Part shown: positions 8,659-54,669 of the stretch, piece by piece
Layout: every line of letters starts with the position of its first letter
Numbering within the stretch: position 1 is the stretch's first letter
DNA from: an uncultured bacterium
Lineage (GTDB): Bacteria > Zhuqueibacterota > QNDG01 > DTFT01
NCBI GenBank assembly: GCA_963736115.1
Contig: CAVTNR010000008.1
Location: 96,001 to 160,000 of the forward strand
Length of the DNA: 64,000 nt
Direction: 5' to 3'
Position numbers and translations under genes: made by a program
The notes under the pieces: model-generated
What the model was told of the DNA's origin: nothing
What the model saw: the letters and a program-made list of their open reading frames with translations, nothing else
The model's database searches: none

Positions 8659-10146
8659 CTATTTGGAGTCCGCCCGCCGCATATCCGAATCGATTTTCTC
8701 CCGGACCCTGTCCGCGCCGCCCGTTACTCCCGGCTTCGCCGTCGACCCGGCGTTGAATTCCGCGACATCCCACCAATCGCCCGTCGTCTCGAATCGGTGC
8801 GGCCCGTAAAAGACGGGCGGCCGCCCCTCGATCTGCACCTGGACCGTCGCGTCCGAGGTGACGTCCCGGTCCAGGCTGTAGCATTTGACCTTCACCGTGT
8901 ACCGGCCCGAAGTGGCGGTCGTGGACGTGAAGGTCTCCGGCCCGAAACCCTCCTGGTCGTCGATATCCAGATATCCGTCGGAAATCGATTTGTTGCTGAA
9001 ATAGGATTCCTCGCCCGCCGGATTCCAGACGTGCAGGTCCAGGTCCGAAGTCGGCGTGTTCCAGGTCAGGGTGATCTCGATGTCGGGCGCCGCGAAATCG
9101 CCGAACACGACGAGTTCCGCGCTTTCACCCGTATTGCCGGCCGCGCTGTTGGCGCGCAGGCGGATCCGGTTCGGCCCGGACGTGATCGAGAGCGTTTCGC
9201 TGAAGGATCCGGACGACACCGTGATCTCCCGTTCAACCCCGTTGAGGGTCAGCACGGCCTTGTCGCCTGTGAAAGGCGACCGGCTGCCTGCGGCTTCCGC
9301 GAGTTCAATCATGCCCGCCAGCTGAATCACGTTGTCCGTGAAACGCGCGCTGTCCGCGGGCTGGGAGAAGGTGAATACCGGCAGGGGCCATGATGGACTG
9401 CTCAGGTCGGCGTCGATCGTGTCCGATTCGCCCGCCGCCAGATCAAATTCGACCGAGAATTCATTGTATCCGGGCAGGTACAATCTCACCGCATGGTGGC
9501 CGATGGGGACGGGGCTCACCACGGCGGGCGTGACCGCGTTCATGTTCGTGCCGTCCAGGTAGATCGAGGCGCCCGCGGGGTTCGACCGGACAGTCACGGA
9601 TCCGGGGGCCATCCCGGCTTCCCAAAGGTTGATCGGTATGGTCACCTCGTGAACGTGTTCCTCGCCGCCCATGGCGCCGGTTTCTCCCGCGTACCGGATC
9701 GTGTCGCGGCTGATGAACGCCACCACAATCAGGTTCAGGCCGATCACGCCGGAAACGGTTCCCTCCGCCCGGTCGCCGCGTATCTCGAGATTCCGGTCGG
9801 TGACCAGGGGCAGGATGGACGAATAAAAGCGTTTCCATTCAGCCCAGGAAACGGTCTGTTCGAAATCGTTCCGCTGACGGAGCTCGGTGTACCGCTGGCC
9901 CTTGGGAGAGCCCGCGAATTCGTTCCACGACCCGTAATTCGAGATGTCGAGAACCATTACGCGTACCTGTTCGATCGCGGAGGCGCGGGCTTTTTTCGCC
10001 GCGGATCCGTCCTGCCCGAGCCAGACGAAAACAGGCCGGATCCGGAAAGCGGCGGCTCCGTCCGGAGCATTCGGAGCGCGGCGTCCGCAGGCGAGGCAGG
10101 CCACGGCCGCGATCGTCAGCATCCAGAAACGTCCACGGTTCTTCAT
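8659..10146 (-). CDS. Lipoprotein with PEGA domain and C-terminal YfaP/DUF2135-like domain
   Basis: CLAC lipobox; VRSNPAGASIYLDG (PEGA); ITLTWNTPTSDLDLHVWNP...LDIDDQEGFGPE (YfaP-like). Confidence 0.8.
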   Translation of the reverse strand: MKNRGRFWMLTIAAVACLACGRRAPNAPDGAAAFRIRPVFVWLGQDGSAAKKARASAIEQVRVMVLDISNYGSWNEFAGSPKGQRYTELRQRNDFEQTVSWAEWKRFYSSILPLVTDRNLEIRGDRAEGTVSGVIGLNLIVVAFISRDTIRYAGETGAMGGEEHVHEVTIPINLWEAGMAPGSVTVRSNPAGASIYLDGTNMNAVTPAVVSPVPIGHHAVRLYLPGYNEFSVEFDLAAGESDTIDADLSSPSWPLPVFTFSQPADSARFTDNVIQLAGMIELAEAAGSRSPFTGDKAVLTLNGVEREITVSSGSFSETLSITSGPNRIRLRANSAAGNTGESAELVVFGDFAAPDIEITLTWNTPTSDLDLHVWNPAGEESYFSNKSISDGYLDIDDQEGFGPETFTSTTATSGRYTVKVKCYSLDRDVTSDATVQVQIEGRPPVFYGPHRFETTGDWWDVAEFNAGSTAKPGVTGGADRVREKIDSDMRRADSK

Positions 10147-11303
10147 CGTGACGACTCCTTCGGCCTTCGTCCCCTGCCGGTCATCGTGATTTCCGCGGTT
10201 CCGCCGATCGAAAGTCCGGTCGCGCCGACATGTTCGTCTCCGGCGTGCAGTGTGCCCTTCTCCCAGCGGGCCTCGAAGTCCAGAACCGCCCGACGGGAGA
10301 CCGGCGTGCGGATGCCCCCTCCGATTCCGACTAGACTGGCGCCTCCGGTCCCGTCGTCGTTGTCCGAAAAACGGCGGATGGAGGCGACGGCGCGCCACGC
10401 GAACGACGGGCTCACGGTCCGTCCGGCGGTGCCGGTGATCTCGAACTGGTTGACGTTCCGGTTTTTCCGCTCCAGGTCGTAGGATTCGCCGGCCCCGGAT
10501 TTGTTTTTCCCCTTCACCCGGTCCCGGACGCACAGTCTCACGTCGTACGGGCCGGCCCGGAAATCCGACCGGATCTGCAGCAGAAGACGTGTTCCCGGCC
10601 GGAAAACCCTCTCCCCTCCCCAGGTGTCGTCGCCGTACAGGGAAAGCATCGCGTCGCCGGTGAGGCGCATCTCTTTTCCCAGTACGATCGCCTCCTTTTC
10701 CGCTCCGGCCGAGACCGACACTTCCCCGCCCGGGTCGTAGGATTCGTCCACGTCCTTGAACGGCTTGTATCCGCCCTTCATCAGGCCGCACACGCCTACG
10801 CCGATAATCCACCCGTTCCATTCGGCGGCTCCGGCGGCTCCGATCTGAACGTCCGCCCCCTGGCCCAGGGTGGGGTATCGGAAGTTGAAGGCGGGCATGG
10901 CCAGAACCGACGTGACGGCGTACTCCTCGGTATTCAGGCCGCTTTTACCGGAGGGAAGGTTGACGCCGAACGTCAGGAGAATGCGATCTCTCCAGGTGAG
11001 CCAGTGACCGCCCAGTTTCATGTCCGACATTCCGGTGAGGCCGTAGTCCGCGACTGCTTTGAGAGCCCCGGATACGATCGGGGAAGACGCGGCATAAAGT
11101 CCGGCCTTCGGCCCGAGAGGGTAAAGGAAGGTCACCGGAAACGAAATTTCGGATGCGCGGTTGTCCCCCGCGCGCCACGCCTGGTAGGAGAACCCCCCTG
11201 CGGCGAGCCGTTCCGTTTGGAGCCTGTCAATCGTTGTCTGACCGAAAGCCGCGGCCGCCCATATCAGCACCGCGCACCCGGTGACACGTGCCCGTCGTTT
11301 CAT
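10143..11303 (-). CDS. Secreted protein, probable outer-membrane beta-barrel
   Basis: Signal peptide (AAAFG), Gly/aromatic-rich alternating strands, overlaps next gene. Confidence 0.6.
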   Translation of the reverse strand: MKRRARVTGCAVLIWAAAAFGQTTIDRLQTERLAAGGFSYQAWRAGDNRASEISFPVTFLYPLGPKAGLYAASSPIVSGALKAVADYGLTGMSDMKLGGHWLTWRDRILLTFGVNLPSGKSGLNTEEYAVTSVLAMPAFNFRYPTLGQGADVQIGAAGAAEWNGWIIGVGVCGLMKGGYKPFKDVDESYDPGGEVSVSAGAEKEAIVLGKEMRLTGDAMLSLYGDDTWGGERVFRPGTRLLLQIRSDFRAGPYDVRLCVRDRVKGKNKSGAGESYDLERKNRNVNQFEITGTAGRTVSPSFAWRAVASIRRFSDNDDGTGGASLVGIGGGIRTPVSRRAVLDFEARWEKGTLHAGDEHVGATGLSIGGTAEITMTGRGRRPKESSR

Positions 11304-11317
11304 GGCGGATCCCTCCC

Positions 11318-12808
11318 TCATTCCGGCGGCAGCGGGATGCTGAGTTCGAAACTGGCGCTGTTGCCGAAGGCCGGCTGCTCCTGCTCCTGGGTCGGCTTGC
11401 GCTGGTCCACGCCCGGCAGGAATCCCCGGTCGAGGAGATCCGCCGTGTCGAACATCCGGTCCACCCACGGCGCGGCCGGTGGAAGAGTCGGAGCGGACGG
11501 CCCCGGCCCGTTGCCGGACCCGGTTCCATTCCCTGCAGTCCGGGCCGCCGGAGGCGAGGATTTCGTTTCCTTCGCGGTTTTCTCCGTTGTTTCCAGCTCC
11601 GTTCCAGCCCCGGCGGTTCGGGTTTCGGCCTCGGGGCCGGTTTCGTCCCCTGGCGACCGGAAACTTCTCTCCAGATCCGCGACCGGAGTCATGGAAACGG
11701 TCAGACGGTCGGCCCGGTCGATTCCCTCCGACGCAGGTCCGTAGCCCGGATCGAGTTCCGCCGCTTTCCGGAATTCCTTTCCGGCGTCCAAATACATCCC
11801 GCGGTCCTCAAAATCGAGGCCGCGGCAATAGGCGAGGAAAGCGAGAAAGTTTTCCGTGGCCACGGGCGCGATGGCGTCGCGTTCCGCCTGGGTCGGCTGT
11901 ATGCCCAGCCGGTCCAGGACGGAGAAAACCAGGTCCTTCTCGAGATTGAAGAACGCCTTCCATTTCCCCTGCACCCGGCTGGACACGGCGGCCCTGTCCT
12001 TTTCGACGGTCACGCATCCGGCGTCCAGTCGGACCGTCTCTTTCGCGAGATCCAGGAAAGATCCCTGGATCAGCCGGGAGGCGCCCAGCAGGCGTCCCAC
12101 CCTGGGCGCTGACCCCTCCGCCACCATGCCTGAAGCGCCCAGACCCAGCTCCTCGAGCATTTTCTGCATGCGGATCCGTTCGACCACGGTCAGGGCCTTC
12201 ACCTTCGACAGGTCGGTGATCATCATGTCGGCAAGCCCCTTGCGGACGGGATCCAGATCGCGCCTTTTGCCGAGGTTCCTGAAGTACAGCACGGCGACGC
12301 CGCTGTCGGACAGCGCGGCGGCTTCGATCGACGATTCCGAGGCCAGGGCGGCTTTCGCCTCCTCCTGCATCCGAATTCGGATCAGGCGCGTCAGCCTCGC
12401 CTCGAGAAGCCCGGACATCCGTCCGCCCCGGTCCATTTCCGTGTAGCGGCGGTAGATGTCTATCGCGTGGGGATAGTCTTTCAGGGTTTCGTACAGCGTG
12501 CCGAGGTAGAAGAGGGTGCGGCCGTCCGTGGAATCCGAGACGAAGGATTCGAGCAGAAACCTGCGGGCGTTCTGGAAGTCGGGTTTACGGTAATACGCGA
12601 TGCCCAGGTCCCGGCAGACTTCGGCGTTTCCGGGGTCCTCCGCACGCGCGGTTTCGAGCCATCGAACGGCTTCTTCGAACCGGTCCTGTTTCAGGAAATC
12701 CGCACCCCGGCGGTGGGCGTTGGAAGCGGCGCAGTTTGCGAGCAGTAGCGCGATGCCGGTGACGGTAAGGATCAGGACGGAAAGGCGGATTCCATTTCGA
12801 GCGGTCAT
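11318..12808 (-). CDS. TPR lipoprotein with CsgG/HfaB/TolB-N-like domain
   Basis: LLANC lipobox, TPR helices, VAVLYFRN...GLADMMITDLSKV...VVERIRMQKMLEE...VGRLLGA. Confidence 0.78.
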   Translation of the reverse strand: MTARNGIRLSVLILTVTGIALLLANCAASNAHRRGADFLKQDRFEEAVRWLETARAEDPGNAEVCRDLGIAYYRKPDFQNARRFLLESFVSDSTDGRTLFYLGTLYETLKDYPHAIDIYRRYTEMDRGGRMSGLLEARLTRLIRIRMQEEAKAALASESSIEAAALSDSGVAVLYFRNLGKRRDLDPVRKGLADMMITDLSKVKALTVVERIRMQKMLEELGLGASGMVAEGSAPRVGRLLGASRLIQGSFLDLAKETVRLDAGCVTVEKDRAAVSSRVQGKWKAFFNLEKDLVFSVLDRLGIQPTQAERDAIAPVATENFLAFLAYCRGLDFEDRGMYLDAGKEFRKAAELDPGYGPASEGIDRADRLTVSMTPVADLERSFRSPGDETGPEAETRTAGAGTELETTEKTAKETKSSPPAARTAGNGTGSGNGPGPSAPTLPPAAPWVDRMFDTADLLDRGFLPGVDQRKPTQEQEQPAFGNSASFELSIPLPPE

Positions 12809-12995
12809 GCCTCCTCCCTTTGAACGCAGGTAATCCGTCAATATACGAAAACGGAGGTTCAAACCAAAGCCGGAAAAATGCGGCGGCCGATGGCGTTCAT
12901 TCGACCGACCCTTTTTTCACATTGCCCATGCGGCTGAAAATCGTTATATTTTCATTATTCCTTTCGTCCATTCCCACAAAACCGGAGGTTCTCCC

Positions 12996-27787: not shown

Positions 27788-27881
27788 TATCGTCTAAATT
27801 TGTGTTTTCGGGCATACCCTAAGTCATTGGTATACCTGAAAATAGAATCCATCCCTTTCCACAAGGAGGTTTAATCCACCT

Positions 27882-30187
27882 ATGCTGCAAGGTCTGACCC
27901 CGTTTGAACAGGTGGCGATTCTGTGCGTTCTCGGCATCGCCATCCTGGGTCTGCTCTACGCGCTGATGCTGCGCAGGCAGATTCTCAAGGAAGACCGCGG
28001 ATCGGCTAAAATGATCGAAGTCTGGACCGCGATCCGCGACGGCGCCGACACCTATCTGAAGCGCCAGCTCAAGTCCATTCTGCCGCTGATCGGGATCCTG
28101 GTCGTGGCCCTCTTCCTCTCCGTGTACATCGTGCCCCCCTCCGCCGAGGCGATGGAACGCTTCGCCGGCCTGCCCGAGGAGACGGTCCGGCTGATCATCG
28201 GTTTCGCGCGGGCCGTGGCCTTCGTCATGGGCGCCGGCTTCTCCCTGATGGTCGGTCAGCTCGGCATGCGCATGGCCGTGCAGGCCAATGTGCGCGTGGC
28301 CGCCGCGCGCCCGCAAGTCGTTCGGCGACGCGCTGCGCATCGCCTACCGCGCCGGCACCGATCACCGGCATGCTGACCGACGGCCTGGGGCTGTTCGGCG
28401 GCACCATCGATCTTCATCGTACTCGGCATCGCCGCTCCCGACGCCCTGCTCGGCTTCGGCTTCGGCGGCACGCTGCTGGCGCTGTTCATGCGCGTGGGCG
28501 GCGGCATCTACACCAAGGCCGCCGACGTGGGCGCCGACCTGGTCGGCAAGGTCGAAGCGGGCATCCCGGAGGACGACCCGCGCAATCCGGCCGTCGTCGC
28601 CGACCTGGTCGGCGACAACGTCGGCGACTGCGCCGGCATGGCGGCCGACATCTTCGAATCCTACGAAGTGACCATCGTCTCCGGCCTGATCCTCGGCCTG
28701 GCGCTGTTCCACTGACCGGCCACATGGAATGGATCATCTTCCCGCTGCTCGTGCGCGGCATCGGCGTGCTCTCTCGATCATCGGCACGTACGTGGTGACG
28801 GGCGGACCGGGAAAGAGCGGCGACGCCATGACAGGCCATCTTCCGCGGCTTCTTCACGTCGGCCGCCATCTCGATCGCGCTGTTCGGCGCGCTGGCTTAC
28901 TTCTACATGTCCGGCATGCCCGGCGGCTGGTGGCGGCCCTTCGCGGCCGTCGCGATCGGCGTGATGCTGGCCATCGCTCATCGACCGGCTGACCGAGTAC
29001 TTCACCGGCACCCACAACGCGACCGGTCAACGAGATCCGGGATGCCACGAACACGGGTCCGGCCACGCTCATTCTGCACCGGCCTCGCCGTGGGTTTTGA
29101 ATCGACCGTCTGGTCGGTCCTCGTCATCGCCGCTCACCATCTTCGGCTCCATCCTGATCTTCGGAACCATGGATGGCTTCGTTCACCGAGACGGTCACGT
29201 ACATCCTGTACGGCGTGGCCATGACCGGCATCGGCATGCTGACCCTGACCGGCAACAACGTGGCCATGGACTCGTTCGGTCCCATCGCGGACAACGCGAA
29301 CGGCATCGGCGAGATGGCCTGGTCCGGCAAGAAGGACAAGTCGACCGTCGAGGCCCGCCAGATCATGGCCGACCTGGACGCGGTCGGCAACACAACCAAG
29401 GCCATCACCAAGGGCGTGGCCATCGGCTCCGCGGTCATCGCGGCCGTTTCTCTGTTCGGATCGTTCATGACCGACGTCTCGCAAGATCGGATCCCATGGC
29501 GCTCGCGATCGGCATCCGCGTGTCAGAGCCCATCGTGTTCGTGGGCATGCTCATCGGCGGGGCCCTGCCGTGGCTGTTCTCGTCGTTCTGCATTCAGGCG
29601 GTCAGCCGCGCGGCTTCGCTGATCGTCGAGGAAGTGCGGCGCCAGTTCAAGGCCGGCGTGCTGGAGGGCAAGGTGAAGCCCGATTACCGGGCCAGGCGGT
29701 CAAGATTTCCACCACCGCGGCGCAGAAGGAGCTCGTCAGTCTGGCCCTTCTCGGCGTCGTGACCCCGGTGGTCGTCGGCCTGGTGTTCAAGGTCGAGGCG
29801 CTGGGCGGGTTCCTCGCGGGCATCATCGTCTCCGGTCAGCTGCTGGCCGTGTTCATGTCGAACGCCGGCGGCGCCTGGGACAATGCCAAGAAAATGATCG
29901 AGGACGAACCCCGCGACCCGAAGAAGAACACCGGCAAGGGTTCCGAGCGCCACAAGGCGAGCGTGGTCGGCGACACGGTCGGCGATCCCCTGAAGGATAC
30001 GGCCGGACCGGCGCTGAACCCGATGATCAAGGTCGTGAACCTGGTGTCGCTGATCATCGCGCCCATCGTGGTCCAGTACCAGGAACTCGGCTGGGCCGGA
30101 TGGGTCGTCGTCGGCGTGCTGCTGGCCGGCCTGGTCTGGGCGATCGGAAACAGCAAGAAACCCGTGCCGTCTCTCGTGAAGAAGTAA
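27882..30187 (+). CDS. hppA: Membrane H+-translocating pyrophosphatase (K+-independent type), split by about ten frameshifts that are probably read errors
   Basis: [37 protein letters not shown] and [10 protein letters not shown] occur in order across frames. Confidence 0.88.
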
Positions 30188-41176: not shown

Positions 41177-41398
41177 TCAGGACTTCTGTTTCTTCGGATT
41201 GAACTGAATCGTGTAGAAGACGCCCATGATCAGCAGAAGAACACCCCACCAGATGCCCGCATGCAGTTCGTTCAGGACCACCGGATTTTCGGGGGGATTG
41301 AAGTATCCGTAAATGCCGGCGCCCAGGATCATGACTCCGTACACGTCCAGGAGCAGTCCGATCGCGAACCAGATCGAAAACAGTTGTTGTTTCGCCAT
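41177..41398 (-). CDS. Small 2-TM protein accompanying the SSS transporter
   Basis: SIWFAIGLLL...LHAGIWWG; 10 bp downstream of the transporter. Confidence 0.75.
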   Translation of the reverse strand: MAKQQLFSIWFAIGLLLDVYGVMILGAGIYGYFNPPENPVVLNELHAGIWWGVLLLIMGVFYTIQFNPKKQKS

Positions 41399-41407
41399 GT
41401 CTCACCC

Positions 41408-43210
41408 CTACCAGAAAATGATGTTCAGGATCACGAAGATCACGGCCACGACGCCCGCCCAGAAGATGGAACGCTTGTAGAACGGGAAATGGCCTTCCGA
41501 CGGAATCACGGTCTGGCCGTAGACCAGGCCGGTCAGTTCCTTGTCCGGTTTGGGTTTGGTCAGCAGGCTGACCACGACGGTGACGACCACGCAGATCACC
41601 CAGCACCAGAGCGCGCGGTACATGTTTTCGGCCATGTCCGAAATGGGCATTGTCGGTATGACCGTTCCGGCCGGAGCCGAAGCCTTCAGGGCCATCCAAT
41701 CCTGCATTTTGCCGTGCGCGGACGGAGAGAAGGCCATGTACGCCAGAAACGAGGCGTCCACGAACTTCACCCAGGCCCACATCCCGATCGACGACAGCGT
41801 GCCCGCGAGCAGTCCCCAGAATCCGCCGGCCGGGGTGGCCCGCTTCCAGAGCATGCCGAGGATCACCGTGCCGAACAGGGGCGCGATGAAGAAGCTGAAA
41901 AGCGCCTGCACGTAGTCCATGATGCTCTGGAACTGCATGACGAGATAGGCGGTGCCGATGCTGACCAGCACGCCGAGCAATAGTGCACCAACGGCCGACC
42001 TTCACGTAGTGCTGATCGCGATTTCTGCTTGGCCAGCGGACGGTAGATGTCGTAGGTCCACACGGTCGCGAACGCGCTTACGTTGCCGGCCATGCCCGAC
42101 ATGAAGCCCGCGATCAGCGCGGTGATGCCGAGGCCCAGCAGTCCGGGCCCGCAGTACCGCGCGAGCATGAGCGGGAGCACCTCGTTGTAGCTGTGGCCGC
42201 CGGTCGCGATCGCCTCCGCTTCCCCGACCAGCTTGAAGGGCAGAACACCGAGGCCCAGGAGTCCCGGAAGAATGACGATGAACGGGACGCACATCTTGAA
42301 CGCCGCGCCGATGATCGGCGCCAGCTTGGCGGATCGCAGGTCCTTCGCGGTCATCACGCGCTGGACGACCAGGAAGTCGGTCGTCCAGTAACCCATCGAG
42401 ATGATGGCGCCGAGGCCGAATACGATGCCGATCCAGTGGATGCCCATGGGATTGTCCGAGAAGGATCCCATGGTGCGCCAGAGATGGGTGTAGTCGCCGC
42501 CCGGGAAATTCTGGTGGATGCGGGCCACGAGTCCGTTCCAGCCGCCGGTCTCCACGAGGCCGACGATGGGGATCAGCAGGGCGCCGAGCCAGATGAGGAA
42601 GAACTGGAGCACCTCGTTGAAGATCGCGGAGAGCAGTCCGCCGAGCATGACGTAGGCGGCCACGGTGAGCGAAGACACCCAGATGCTGAAATGGATGTCC
42701 CAGCCGAGCACCACTTTCATCACGAGGGCCATGGAGTACATGTTGACGCCGCTCATGAAGACGGTCATGAGACCGAACGAGACGGCCGACAGCCGAGCGT
42801 GCCCCATTGCCGTACCGGAGCTGAAGATAGCCGGGAACGGAATGGGTCTTCGAGATGTAGTAGAACGGCATCATCACCACGGCGAGGAACAGCATCGCCG
42901 GAATGGCGCCGATCCAGTACCAGTGGGTGGCCAGGATGCCGTACTGGTAGGAGGCGGCCGCCCATCCCATCAGTTCGAGGGAGCCGAGGTTCGCGGCAAC
43001 GAAGCTCAGGCCCGCGACCCAGGCGGTCATCTCCCGTCCGGCCATGAAGAAATCCTCGCCGGTTTTCGTGTGCTTCTTGAGCATGACGCCGATTCCGATG
43101 ACCAGCAGAAAGTAGACGACGATGATGAGTACGTCGATGGTACTCATCTTCAGCAGCGACCCGGATGTTCCCAGGTTCGCCGCGGCGCAGAGTGCCAGGT
43201 GACCGATCAT
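41408..43210 (-). CDS. Sodium:solute symporter (sugar-type), frameshifts near 42800 and about 41980-42030
   Basis: DFFMAGR, SVPGYLQLRY, GYWTTDFLVVQR, AGFMSGMAGNVSAF, TVILGMLWKR across three ORFs. Confidence 0.87.
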
Positions 43211-43265
43211 ACGCGGTTTCGCCTTCTTTTATGAGAGTGGGGGTGATGGGAAGCGAACTCCGGAC

Positions 43266-52065: not shown

Positions 52066-53247
52066 ATGAATCGTAACAACAACGCTTTTTTTCCCGCACC
52101 CGGCGAGGCGGACAACATTCATTTTCTGAATGTGAATGAGGATGACTGCATGCGGTGCGGCAAATGTGAAGGCGTCTGCCCGACGGGCGCCATCGCGCGA
52201 ACCCTGCCGGAGACTCCCTGGTGCGTTCACCACATCCCCAATCCGGCGGCCTGCATCGCCTGCGGTCAGTGCCTGAAGGGGTGTCCCGAATCCGCGATTC
52301 AGGAGACCGTCTCTTTCATGGATGAAATCCGGCGGAAACTCGCGGATCCGGACGTGGTCACCGTGGCCATGCCCGCGCCGTCGATCCGCTACACGCTGGG
52401 GGAGGCGTTCGGGGACGACGCGCCGCGGTACGAGGCGGGCCGGATGTTCGCCGCGCTCCGGAGGCTCGGATTCGACAAGGTCTGGGACGTTGAATTCGGC
52501 GCGGATCTGACGATTCTGGAGGAAAGCGCCGAACTTCTGGGCCGGATTCGGGGCGAGCTGGACCGGCCGCTGCCTCTCCTGACCTCGTGCTGTCCCGGAT
52601 GGGTCCGTTTCGTGGAAACGTACCATCCCACGCTCATCCCCAACCTCTCAACCGCGCGTTCCCCGGCCCAGATGCTCGGCGTGATCGCCAAAACCAGGGG
52701 CGCGTCGCAGATCGGAGTGAGCGCGGACAATCTCTACACGGTCCAGATCATGCCCTGCATCGCCAAGAAATTCGAGGAATTGAGGATCGAAAACGCGAAG
52801 TCCGGATTTCGGGATATTGACGCCACGATCAATACGCGCGAGCTCATCCAGTGGCTCAAGGACTCGGCCGTGGATTTCGACGTCCTGCCGGAAGAGCAGG
52901 CGGATGATCCTTTCCGCGCATCCACCGGCGCGGCGACCATCTTCGGGGCGACCGGCGGCGTCATGGAAGCCGCGCTCCGCCGCGTGACGGAAGAACTGGA
53001 CGGAAGACCGCTGGAAAACGTGGAATTCCGATCCGTCCGGGGTACCGAAGGGGTTCGTGAGGCGGAAATCACGGCGGGCGGACAGACGTTCAAGGTCGCG
53101 GTCGTGAGCGGCGCGATCAACGCCGGTCCGGTCTGCGCGGCCATCAAGGCGGGAACGTCCCCCTACGCGGCGGTCGAAGTGATGGCTTGTCCGGGCGGCT
53201 GTCTCAACGGCGGCGGTCAACCCATTGAAAAAGAATATACAACTTGA
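52066..53247 (+). CDS. hydA: [FeFe]-hydrogenase group A large subunit (2x[4Fe-4S] + H-cluster domain)
   Basis: CMRCGKCEGVCP, CIACGQCLKGCP, TSCCPGW, MPCIAKKFE, EVMACPGGCLNGGGQP. Confidence 0.95.
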   Translation: MNRNNNAFFPAPGEADNIHFLNVNEDDCMRCGKCEGVCPTGAIARTLPETPWCVHHIPNPAACIACGQCLKGCPESAIQETVSFMDEIRRKLADPDVVTVAMPAPSIRYTLGEAFGDDAPRYEAGRMFAALRRLGFDKVWDVEFGADLTILEESAELLGRIRGELDRPLPLLTSCCPGWVRFVETYHPTLIPNLSTARSPAQMLGVIAKTRGASQIGVSADNLYTVQIMPCIAKKFEELRIENAKSGFRDIDATINTRELIQWLKDSAVDFDVLPEEQADDPFRASTGAATIFGATGGVMEAALRRVTEELDGRPLENVEFRSVRGTEGVREAEITAGGQTFKVAVVSGAINAGPVCAAIKAGTSPYAAVEVMACPGGCLNGGGQPIEKEYTT

Positions 53248-53260
53248 TGCGAGGTCTCTG

Positions 53261-53878
53261 ATGAGTGAAGCCATCAATGAAAAACGGACGGTCACCCGCC
53301 GCGATTTTCTCAAGATATCAGGCGTCATTTCCGCGCTGATCGTGACGGGCATCAAGTCCGCCGCGCACGCGGCGCAGAAGGCGGTTGAAAACTTTCTGGC
53401 GCGGATAGAGGCCGCGTACGCGCAGGATGCCGCAATGCCCCTCCGCAAGTCGCAGGACAATCCGCAGCTGCAGAGCCTGTACGCGGACTTCCTCGGCCGG
53501 CCGCTCGGCGGGATGTCCGAAAGCCTTCTGCATACCAGCTACACGGACCGTTCCTCGGCCGTCTCCGTGGCACGGCCGGGGGCCGTCCGTTCCCTGCCCG
53601 AGTCTCCGGTGATCGAGTCGGTCTATCCGAATCCGTTCAACGCATCGGCTGAAATCGAATTCCGCATATCCGCGCCGGGAATGGTATGGCTCGCGGTTTT
53701 CAACGCCGCGGGACAGCGGGTGCGCTCGCTCGCGGAAGAGCGCATGCCGGCGGGAGACCACCGGATCCGGTGGGACGGAAAGGACTCCTACGGCAGGAGC
53801 GCCCCGTCCGGGATATACATCGCCCGGCTTGTATCGGGATCGCGGACGGCCGCGATCCGCATGACGCTGATGAAATGA
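53261..53878 (+). CDS. hydB: [FeFe]-hydrogenase small subunit with Tat signal, fused to a FlgD-Ig/T9SS-type C-terminal domain
   Basis: TRRDFLK; RIEAAYAQD...RKSQDNP...LY..FLGRPLG...LLHTSY; then YPNPFNAS...VFNAAGQRVRSL...WDGKD...SGIY..RL...MTLMK. Confidence 0.9.
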   Translation: MSEAINEKRTVTRRDFLKISGVISALIVTGIKSAAHAAQKAVENFLARIEAAYAQDAAMPLRKSQDNPQLQSLYADFLGRPLGGMSESLLHTSYTDRSSAVSVARPGAVRSLPESPVIESVYPNPFNASAEIEFRISAPGMVWLAVFNAAGQRVRSLAEERMPAGDHRIRWDGKDSYGRSAPSGIYIARLVSGSRTAAIRMTLMK

Positions 53879-53889
53879 TGCCGAATGAT

Positions 53890-54137
53890 GAATCTGACAG
53901 CGAGCGCATTTCCCGGCTTCGCCGGACCAAGCAACCGGATTCTTTCTCATTGAAGGCCCGCGGCTTGTCTTCAACAAGCAGGCATATAATAGCTTGATCC
54001 CGCGCAGCGGGCCGCGGGGTAAGCGAGCGAATATCAGATGTCTCTTCTCTACAGATAGAAGATTCCCCGCCGCTTGCCTTCAAACAGAAGGCATATAATA
54101 GCTTGGTCCCGCGAAGCGGGCGGCGGGGAGCTTCAAT
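53890..54137 (+). mobile_element. Repeat family A with 3 micro-element insertions
   Basis: Matches 34660-34777 once 53912-53956, 53968-54011 and 54077-54120 are removed. Confidence 0.82.
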
Positions 54138-54222: not shown

Positions 54223-54669
54223 ATGGACTTCGACTCTTTTATGTCCCGTTATTTCTGGATCGTCCTTCCCGTTTTCTGGGTTCTCATGTGCCGGCTGGTC
54301 GCCCGGATAAGCGGATGGAATGCCCTGGCCGAATCCTACGCGGCCCAGTCCGACGCCACTGGAACGATTCTCCGGTTCCAGAGCGGTTCCTTCCGCTGGA
54401 GCGCCAATTACAGCGGGCTGCTGAATGTCGGAGCGGACAGCAGCGGACTGCACCTGTCCGTGATCATGTTTTTCAAGCCCGGGCATGCGCCGCTGTCCAT
54501 CCCGTGGAGCGACATTCGGGCCGAACCGCATGGCGTGTTCACGCCGGCGGTGCGCCTGACCTTCAGCCGCAATCCGAAATGTCCGCTTTTCATTTCCGGA
54601 AATCTGGCGCAGAGGATCGCAACGATGAGCGGGGGAGGGTTTACGGTGCCGGCGCAAAAGAGTTCATAG
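54223..54669 (+). CDS. Membrane-anchored hypothetical protein
   Basis: GGAGG RBS, N-terminal TM, SGWNALAESY, GHAPLSIPWSDI. Confidence 0.72.
   Translation: MDFDSFMSRYFWIVLPVFWVLMCRLVARISGWNALAESYAAQSDATGTILRFQSGSFRWSANYSGLLNVGADSSGLHLSVIMFFKPGHAPLSIPWSDIRAEPHGVFTPAVRLTFSRNPKCPLFISGNLAQRIATMSGGGFTVPAQKSS

Follow-up and report, generated by a model that had tools for sequence, protein, structure and literature searches.

Here, we have analysed hydAB, a two-gene locus in a 64,000-nt stretch of DNA from an uncultured bacterium (contig CAVTNR010000008.1, positions 96,001 to 160,000; the whole stretch is referred to as the window), and show that its small subunit, HydB, joins a twin-arginine translocation (Tat) signal and a hydrogenase small-subunit domain to a C-terminal domain of the type A/FlgD-Ig kind associated with a type IX secretion system (T9SS). 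This fusion is a genuine and conserved architecture that defines a small but deep family. The HydAB type and the tail type are each already known; what is new is a Desulfovibrio-type HydAB to which a T9SS-type sorting domain has been added. In the literature searched, which did not cover subscription journals, we found neither a hydrogenase with a T9SS tail nor a T9SS cargo that depends on Tat.

We propose, at what we judge to be slightly less than an even chance, that HydB is the first natural example of a cargo that takes Tat across the inner membrane and T9SS across the outer membrane. It would take an assembled, metal-loaded [FeFe]-hydrogenase to the cell surface, with the untagged HydA hitchhiking twice, in a small lineage of the Fibrobacteres-Chlorobi-Bacteroidetes (FCB) type with extracellular H2 metabolism. 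The features of the locus are as follows.

52066..53247, + strand: hydA, large subunit of the [FeFe]-hydrogenase, 393 aa, with two [4Fe-4S] motifs of ferredoxin type and the L1-L3 motifs in its H-domain
53261..53878, + strand: hydB, small subunit with C-terminal sorting-type domain, 205 aa from ATG
53261..53365, + strand: Tat signal peptide, HydB residues 1-35 (TRRDFLK, hydrophobic stretch, AHA-A; TIGR01409)
53366..53554, + strand: Fe_hyd_SSU domain, residues 36-98, including RKSQDN and LLHT (PF02256)
53555..53608, + strand: flexible linker, residues 99-116 (18 residues), with low predicted confidence, poor conservation and a ratio of nonsynonymous to synonymous substitution rates (dN/dS) of 0.41-1.0
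53609..53875, + strand: C-terminal Ig-like beta-sandwich, residues 117-205, of T9SS type A/FlgD_ig type, ending in MTLMK

A Desulfovibrio-type hydrogenase with an extended small subunit

HydA matches PF02906 (Fe_hyd_lg_C) with an E-value of 5.8e-81 and carries two Fer4 clusters, at residues 23-43 and about 59-80, with no further N-terminal domains. Its score against TIGR02512 (group A) is 436.1 bits, where the cut-off is 405.95, and the three H-cluster motifs, TSCCPGW, MPCIAKKFE and MACPGGCLNGGGQP, are all present. The large subunit of D. desulfuricans (1HFE_L) aligns to residues 13-387 of HydA with an E-value of 2.7e-120 and a single 4-residue gap, and in this alignment every cysteine motif of the clusters and the H-cluster is kept. 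No hydrophobic signal peptide was found at the N-terminus of HydA, which is hydrophilic in the translated open reading frame (ORF). These results agree with the first-pass annotation, made from the letters of the window, which had read HydA as having intact L1-L3 motifs, two ferredoxin clusters and no signal peptide. Identity between HydAB and the Desulfovibrio periplasmic HydAB (1HFE) is about 55%. By sequence comparison, hydAB is thus a heterodimeric [FeFe]-hydrogenase of group A that resembles the D. desulfuricans hydrogenase (DdH).

Relatives are encoded by 177 stretches of the species-representative genomes, of which 80 were retained. A FastTree phylogeny of HydA was built from 76 rows, namely the window and, from each of 75 loci with a match of at least 250 residues, its best ORF; five loci were dropped. 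The window groups with L001, L002 and L013 in a clade of four rows with a Shimodaira-Hasegawa-like support of 100, which is to be read with caution given the long branches and the FastTree type of support. L001 and L002 come from two other metagenome-assembled genomes (MAGs), and their HydA is identical to that of the window at 360/393 and 340/365 positions, respectively. The nearest neighbour of this trio in the tree is L013, a MAG of the Leptospiraceae, which is also the only one of the tree loci with a canonical split Tat-HydB: a stop-to-stop frame of 121 residues that runs for 21 residues after LLHT. Monomeric [FeFe]-hydrogenases were seen at six loci (L005, L006, L008, L054 from Sutterella, L014 and L077), where they continue for about 230-250 residues past LLHT; tblastn gave no match between these C-terminal extensions and the T9SS-type tail.

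The hydB gene lies directly downstream of hydA, 14 nt from its stop codon (TGA, 53245-53247). An alternative start, TTG at 53225, would give a protein of 217 aa (53225..53878) that overlaps hydA. ATG 53261 is the likelier start because it lies 3' of the hydA stop, has GAGG 6 nt upstream and corresponds to the first Met of the homologs. Residues of HydB are numbered from this ATG unless the 217-aa form is named.

A protein search with HydB returned 27 matches among 313 candidates. Fe_hyd_SSU and FlgD_ig occur together in 16 of the 27 (as clusters at 90% identity), which come from JGI, ENA and Logan sources and range from 100% down to 44% identity, and the remaining 11 share the tail alone. The Tat signal of HydB scores 18.3-18.4 against TIGR01409 (cut-off 16.7) and falls below the cut-off of PF10518 TAT_signal (19 vs 22.7). 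TIGR01409 reaches an E-value of 0.01 or lower in only 4 of the 16 fusion homologs. Every one of the 15 homologs whose N-terminus is complete keeps the twin arginine itself, and the signal lines up with that of the D. desulfuricans small subunit, 1HFE_S. That the Tat signal is confined to the small subunit, as in Desulfovibrio, was already proposed in the first-pass annotation, and the analysis supports it.

The hydrogenase part of HydB matches PF02256 with 68.5 bits (cut-off 24; 4.9e-19). A profile of the HydB family matches 1HFE_S with an E-value of 4.4e-23, its positions 9-120 corresponding to chain residues 4-118 of 123, signal included. Since the profile matches the full 1HFE_S precursor, the tail begins where a canonical small subunit ends. 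Consistent with this, 113 residues follow LLHT in HydB, compared with about 30 in 1HFE_S and 21 in L013, and the earlier remark that the Desulfovibrio HydB ends soon after this motif holds. In the AlphaFold2 model, the predicted local distance difference test (pLDDT) score is below 50 for residues 86-112. The helices of the small-subunit domain are also of low confidence, which is expected when HydA is absent from the model.

The tail itself consists of 89 residues, with YPNPFN beginning at 53624. The first-pass annotation had described HydB as TRRDFLK, a small-subunit domain and an in-frame tail from about 53597; this description stands, the folded tail starting close by, at 53609. The tail scores 37.4 against PF13860 FlgD_ig (cut-off 27; residues 154-200 of the 217-aa form) and 26.7-26.9 against TIGR04183, the T9SS type A sorting domain (cut-off 23), so that all four models named at the outset (PF02256, TIGR01409, TIGR04183 and PF13860) are above their cut-offs on HydB. 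TIGR04183 is matched at an E-value of 0.01 or lower in 16 of 16 fusion homologs, the best being 1.5e-09, and PF18962 Por_Secre_tail appears in the precomputed annotation of 6 of them.

With the alignment of the 16 sequences as input, AlphaFold2 modelled the tail as a 7-strand sandwich with pLDDT above 90 and strands over residues 117-203. In a Foldseek search of this model against the PDB, FlgD gave the best match (9.3e-05; 3osv, 7bhq). Further matches include PorZ (5m11), PorU (6za2) and the C-terminal domain (CTD) of NucA in a T9SS complex (8glk_D, TMt 0.63), and many generic Ig domains are also among them. The N-terminal domain of FlgD was not found in HydB, the FlgD equivalog models scored far below their cut-offs, and an ORF scan of the window found no flagellar genes near hydAB. 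According to the portion of PMC11285876 available to us, CTDs of T9SS cargo are compact sandwiches of 3+4 strands that secretion needs and that suffice for it, and their required features are a conserved glycine in the loop between strands 3 and 4 (Lb3b4) and a C-terminal motif; the same source notes that such CTDs often cannot be swapped from one species to another. All 16 homologs in the alignment have G151, which sits between strands 3 and 4, and end in a basic residue, K in 15 and R in one; G151 and the terminal K/R fit the P. gingivalis motifs by their position in the predicted strands only. Known cargo CTDs are also joined by a flexible linker (PMC4804311, in the part available), as is the tail here. 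Taken together, the tail is a T9SS type A/FlgD-Ig domain.

Conservation of the fusion and spread of the tail

That the fusion is not an assembly artefact is supported by the 16 homologous clusters, by deeper representatives, by syntenic MAGs and by the selection acting on the tail. Complete or near-complete conservation across the 16 aligned homologs is seen for RR, RKSQ.N, LLHT, PNPF, G151, WDG, SG.Y and the final K/R. A profile search run exhaustively on 1.84 billion representatives gave, among the matches listed, four full-length matches in a single stretch (P0002, P0016, P0040 and P0048). P0016, P0040 and P0048 are 40-44% identical to HydB of the window, keep all four parts and score 28-34 bits against TIGR04183, and the four clusters with the fusion, formed at 50% identity, are about 40% identical to one another. 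The same search also matched P0042, a protein of 4122 aa, whose best match lies in the small-subunit part of the profile (positions 47-97, at residues 3539-3589 of P0042; seven matched stretches).

In the species-representative genomes, tblastn coverage reaches the tail only in L001 and L002. The order of genes in L001 is the same as in the window from 43.4 to 64 kb, and the hydAB fusion and its gene order are repeated in both MAGs, with no indels at the junction among the three sequences. HydB of L002 appeared longer; that this reflects an extra domain was ruled out, as the ORF reads through a scaffold gap of 100 N. Pairwise comparison of the window, L001 and L002 by the Nei-Gojobori method gave dN/dS of 0.16-0.24 for the tail and 0.11-0.20 for the small-subunit domain, compared with the 0.41-1.0 of the linker. 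The tail is under purifying selection, like the hydrogenase domain.

Could the fusion nevertheless be the product of a frameshift or of chimeric assembly, or the tail a relic domain in decay? Indel errors or pseudogenes do exist in the window, where the genes for an H+-pyrophosphatase and a sodium:solute symporter are broken. However, the architecture is uninterrupted in 16 clusters from several independent sources and in the four deep representative clusters, L001 and L002 keep it within conserved synteny, and the dN/dS of the tail is not that of a decaying domain. We consider an artefact very improbable, and the first-pass annotation, which had called for homologs in support of the fusion, is answered by the search matches, the two MAGs and the deep representatives.

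The tail is not restricted to HydB. When longer proteins were searched with nothing but the tail, 159 of 539 candidates matched, and what follows refers to the 120 of these that were listed. Their tails are up to 54% identical to that of HydB and end PD40 propellers, CotH proteins, M6 and subtilisin peptidases, a multicopper oxidase, DUF362 proteins, sorbosone dehydrogenases and others. Organism labels were attached to 11 of the 120 (four Latescibacterota, three Ignavibacteria, one KSB1, one Bacteroidota and two 'bacterium'), and the N-termini inspected are Sec-like. Terminal tails on unrelated secreted proteins form the pattern of a portable sorting tag. Matches in the Atlas, to be taken as leads only given their low scores (0.75-0.79), are all CTD cargo of FCB phyla.

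A Tat signal together with such a tail is rare. A loose regular expression for Tat signals flagged 5 of 148 representatives from the profile search, two of which are HydB homologs; another, P0117, has the CTD end but a Sec-like n-region, and a convincing RR with a terminal tail is seen only in the two HydB homologs. The same expression flagged 9 of the 120 tail-bearing longer proteins, with the SRRxFI consensus only in P0214. This protein of 471 aa has a DUF362 domain, a Tat-like N-terminus (SRRQFIDLS) after a long n-region and a T9SS type A tail 46% identical to that of HydB, and TIGR01409 gave no match to it at an E-value of 0.01 or lower. At lead level only, an Atlas cluster with DUF362 and FlgD_ig has TAT_signal in 17% of its members. 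P0214 hints that other cofactor proteins could combine a Tat signal with a T9SS tag and take the same route. P0189, a multicopper oxidase of 735 aa, has the same kind of tail and a Sec-like N-terminus.

The export route and its alternatives

A route to the cell surface through Tat and then T9SS is the best explanation we have for HydAB, and we would give it an even chance. By homology, the cytoplasm would be where HydA is loaded with Fe-S clusters and the H-cluster and where it binds HydB. The folded dimer would then cross the inner membrane via Tat, guided by the RR signal of HydB and with HydA as a 'hitchhiker', as the homology to DdH suggests. In the next step, the Ig-like CTD on its disordered linker would act as a T9SS type A signal and take the folded holoenzyme through the translocon of the outer membrane. 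That a folded enzyme could cross in this way is plausible, since the barrel through which T9SS passes folded proteins has 36 strands (PMC9251779, in the part available). After this, the tag would probably be cleaved, leaving the enzyme either fixed to the cell surface or to vesicles, or set free, as for cargo of P. gingivalis and F. johnsoniae; removal of the tail followed by anchoring or release is described for T9SS cargo in the portion of PMC11285876 available to us. Outside the cell, H2 and electrons could be interconverted with an external partner, and it is reasonable to infer that the enzyme would serve extracellular H2 or electron exchange.

Several observations weigh against this route. 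PF18962 stays below its cut-off on HydB of the window (17.6 vs 27). No T9SS component was found in the window, L001 or L002, no T9SS tail was found by NCBIfam models on the C-termini of 32 other proteins of the window, and a family-specific hidden Markov model of the tail, run on ORFs in all six frames of the window, L001 and L002, found nothing besides HydB. No electron partner is encoded near hydAB as judged by the CxxCH content of the window. Internal FlgD_ig repeats in proteins that are not T9SS cargo make up most of the top 150 representatives of the profile search. From 102 experimentally known T9SS cargo proteins, all of which fit it, the T9GPred preprint, in the text available, derives the rule 'Sec signal, no Tat signal'; the first-pass annotation had likewise noted that YPNPFN-type tails usually pair with Sec, and this is borne out by the accessible text of the preprint and of a Journal of Biological Chemistry (JBC) review. 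Export of a non-covalent heterodimer by T9SS also does not appear to be among the cases in the literature cited here.

The absence of T9SS genes from the window, the Sec-only rule for cargo and the wide occurrence of FlgD_ig make an ordinary periplasmic hydrogenase the main rival. HydAB would not cross the outer membrane, and the tail would be retained as a tether to the outer membrane or peptidoglycan, or as a dock for a redox partner. All features of HydAB but the tail are those of the periplasmic DdH, a Tat signal is atypical of known T9SS cargo (the T9GPred preprint and PMC9251779, as far as the available text of each goes), the FlgD_ig fold occurs widely in contexts other than sorting tags, and neither T9SS genes nor other tagged proteins lie within the 64 kb. 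However, the tail scores above the cut-off of the T9SS type A model as well as that of FlgD_ig, and all 16 homologs match the former. Its nearest relatives end many unrelated, Sec-like secreted proteins, which is unexpected for a module dedicated to binding a partner, and the linker is relaxed and disordered like that of known cargo CTDs (the available part of PMC4804311). On balance we regard a periplasmic enzyme as unlikely, though a serious alternative.

It is also conceivable that T9SS handles HydB and HydA but the product is released, in vesicles or free, and acts away from the cell, for example by making H2 from reduced minerals or Fe(0) that is consumed by the community. The evidence for surface export applies equally here, and extracellular [NiFe]-hydrogenases in such a role are reported for corrosive Methanococcus maripaludis in the accessible portions of PMC11452385 and PMC7848899. 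The present data do not separate anchoring from release. Release would also bring no obvious energetic return to the producing cell. We find it improbable, distinctly more so than a periplasmic enzyme.

The known locations of hydrogenases in diderm bacteria are the cytoplasm, the inner membrane and the periplasm. If surface export via Tat and T9SS is true, a surface-exposed or secreted [FeFe]-hydrogenase would change models of H2 exchange, of electron uptake from minerals and electrodes, and of syntrophy in uncultured anaerobes. It would also mean that T9SS accepts Tat substrates with their hitchhiking partners and exports non-covalent enzyme complexes. Predictors of T9SS cargo that reject any protein with a Tat signal, as described in the available text of the T9GPred preprint, would then overlook all proteins of this kind. 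For the display of oxygen-sensitive metalloenzymes on cells, the tag could offer a template from nature.

Genomic surroundings and comparison with known systems

Abundant in the window are genes for secreted glycosidases (fucosidase, rhamnosidase, alpha-galactosidase), for two-component systems and for housekeeping functions. In a search with elongation factor G (EF-G), the nearest named relatives among the matches listed were candidate division KSB1 (three rows) and Calditrichota (two rows), at 75-76% identity. Only 16 of the 120 rows listed carry an organism label (11 'bacterium', three KSB1, two Calditrichota), and the rows are ranked by identity with no phylogeny. This ranking of EF-G sequences, not a tree, suggests a host of FCB type nearest to KSB1/Calditrichota. 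Rfam and tRNA scans found no rRNA, tRNA or Rfam family in the window.

Radical-SAM, HydF and cytochrome families are not found among the 49 window ORFs scanned, and neither HydEFG nor Tat genes were found within the 64 kb. Of the six-frame ORFs in the window that reach 50 aa, just one has so much as a single CxxCH motif, and no multihaem cytochrome is encoded there. The first-pass annotation had also recorded neither maturases nor a cytochrome partner in the window.

The gene that follows hydB (54223-54669, + strand) encodes a 148-aa protein that matches no family and begins with a single hydrophobic helix at its N-terminus. It also follows hydB in L001 (10710-11165) and in L002, where it lies downstream of the N gap, and the window and L001 proteins are identical at 128 of 148 positions. 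The 345-nt gap between hydB and this gene contains two copies of a 63-nt element (53957-54019 and 54066-54128), 87% identical and 109 nt apart, with GC-rich self-complementary ends; inverted arms are found at the site (53913-53964 and 54069-54120). A 17-nt core of the element occurs in the window only at these two places (0.01 expected). Since the counterpart gap in L001 is about 95 nt and lacks the core, the element looks like a small-repeat insertion in the genome of the window, similar to repetitive extragenic palindromes (REP) or miniature inverted-repeat transposable elements (MITE).

The H+-pyrophosphatase gene (27846-30187, + strand) has frameshifts and in-frame TGA codons at 28374, 28713 and 28962, and the sodium:solute symporter (SSF) gene (41180-43228, - strand) has frameshifts and an in-frame TGA at 42002. 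The two are either pseudogenes or the result of indel errors in the assembly. A cluster at 8659-12862 (- strand) encodes a PEGA-domain protein, a 440-aa ORF with no assignment and a protein with tetratricopeptide repeats (TPR) and a CsgG-like part; it may be an envelope or secretion-related module, and its C-termini carry no T9SS tail.

Compared with the HydAB of D. desulfuricans and D. vulgaris (1HFE), the enzyme studied here has the same large subunit with two ferredoxin clusters and an H-domain but no signal peptide, and the same separate small subunit with a Tat signal and the RKSQDN...LLHT belt. In contrast to Desulfovibrio, HydB continues into a linker and an Ig-like domain of 89 residues, the window has no gene for cytochrome c3 near hydAB, and the host would be a polysaccharide-degrading bacterium of FCB type and not a sulfate reducer.

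The tail resembles the type A CTDs of T9SS cargo and components (RgpB, PorZ, PorU, mirolase, NucA): it is terminal, about 85 residues long and a 7-strand Ig-like sandwich after a disordered linker, with a PNPF start, a score above the TIGR04183 cut-off and, by position in the predicted strands, a conserved Gly before strand 4 and a basic last residue. Unlike known type A cargo, it is paired with a Tat and not a Sec signal, it tags only the smaller chain of what would be a cofactor-loaded heterodimer, and it is found in a lineage outside Bacteroidota. The tail also belongs to the fold family of the Ig-like domain of the FlgD hook cap (PF13860; 3osv, 7bhq) and passes the Pfam cut-off, but the match covers the Ig domain only, HydB having neither the N-terminal region of FlgD nor a flagellar context.

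We would like to point out one further likeness, drawn from the available portions of the Methanococcus papers. The extracellular [NiFe]-hydrogenase of M. maripaludis is, like the HydAB proposed here, a hydrogenase with a Tat signal that is thought to act outside the cell. It differs in being an archaeal [NiFe] enzyme, with no T9SS tag and from a cell with no outer membrane to cross. Within what those sources describe, this hydrogenase of corrosive Methanococcus is the nearest functional precedent for HydAB.

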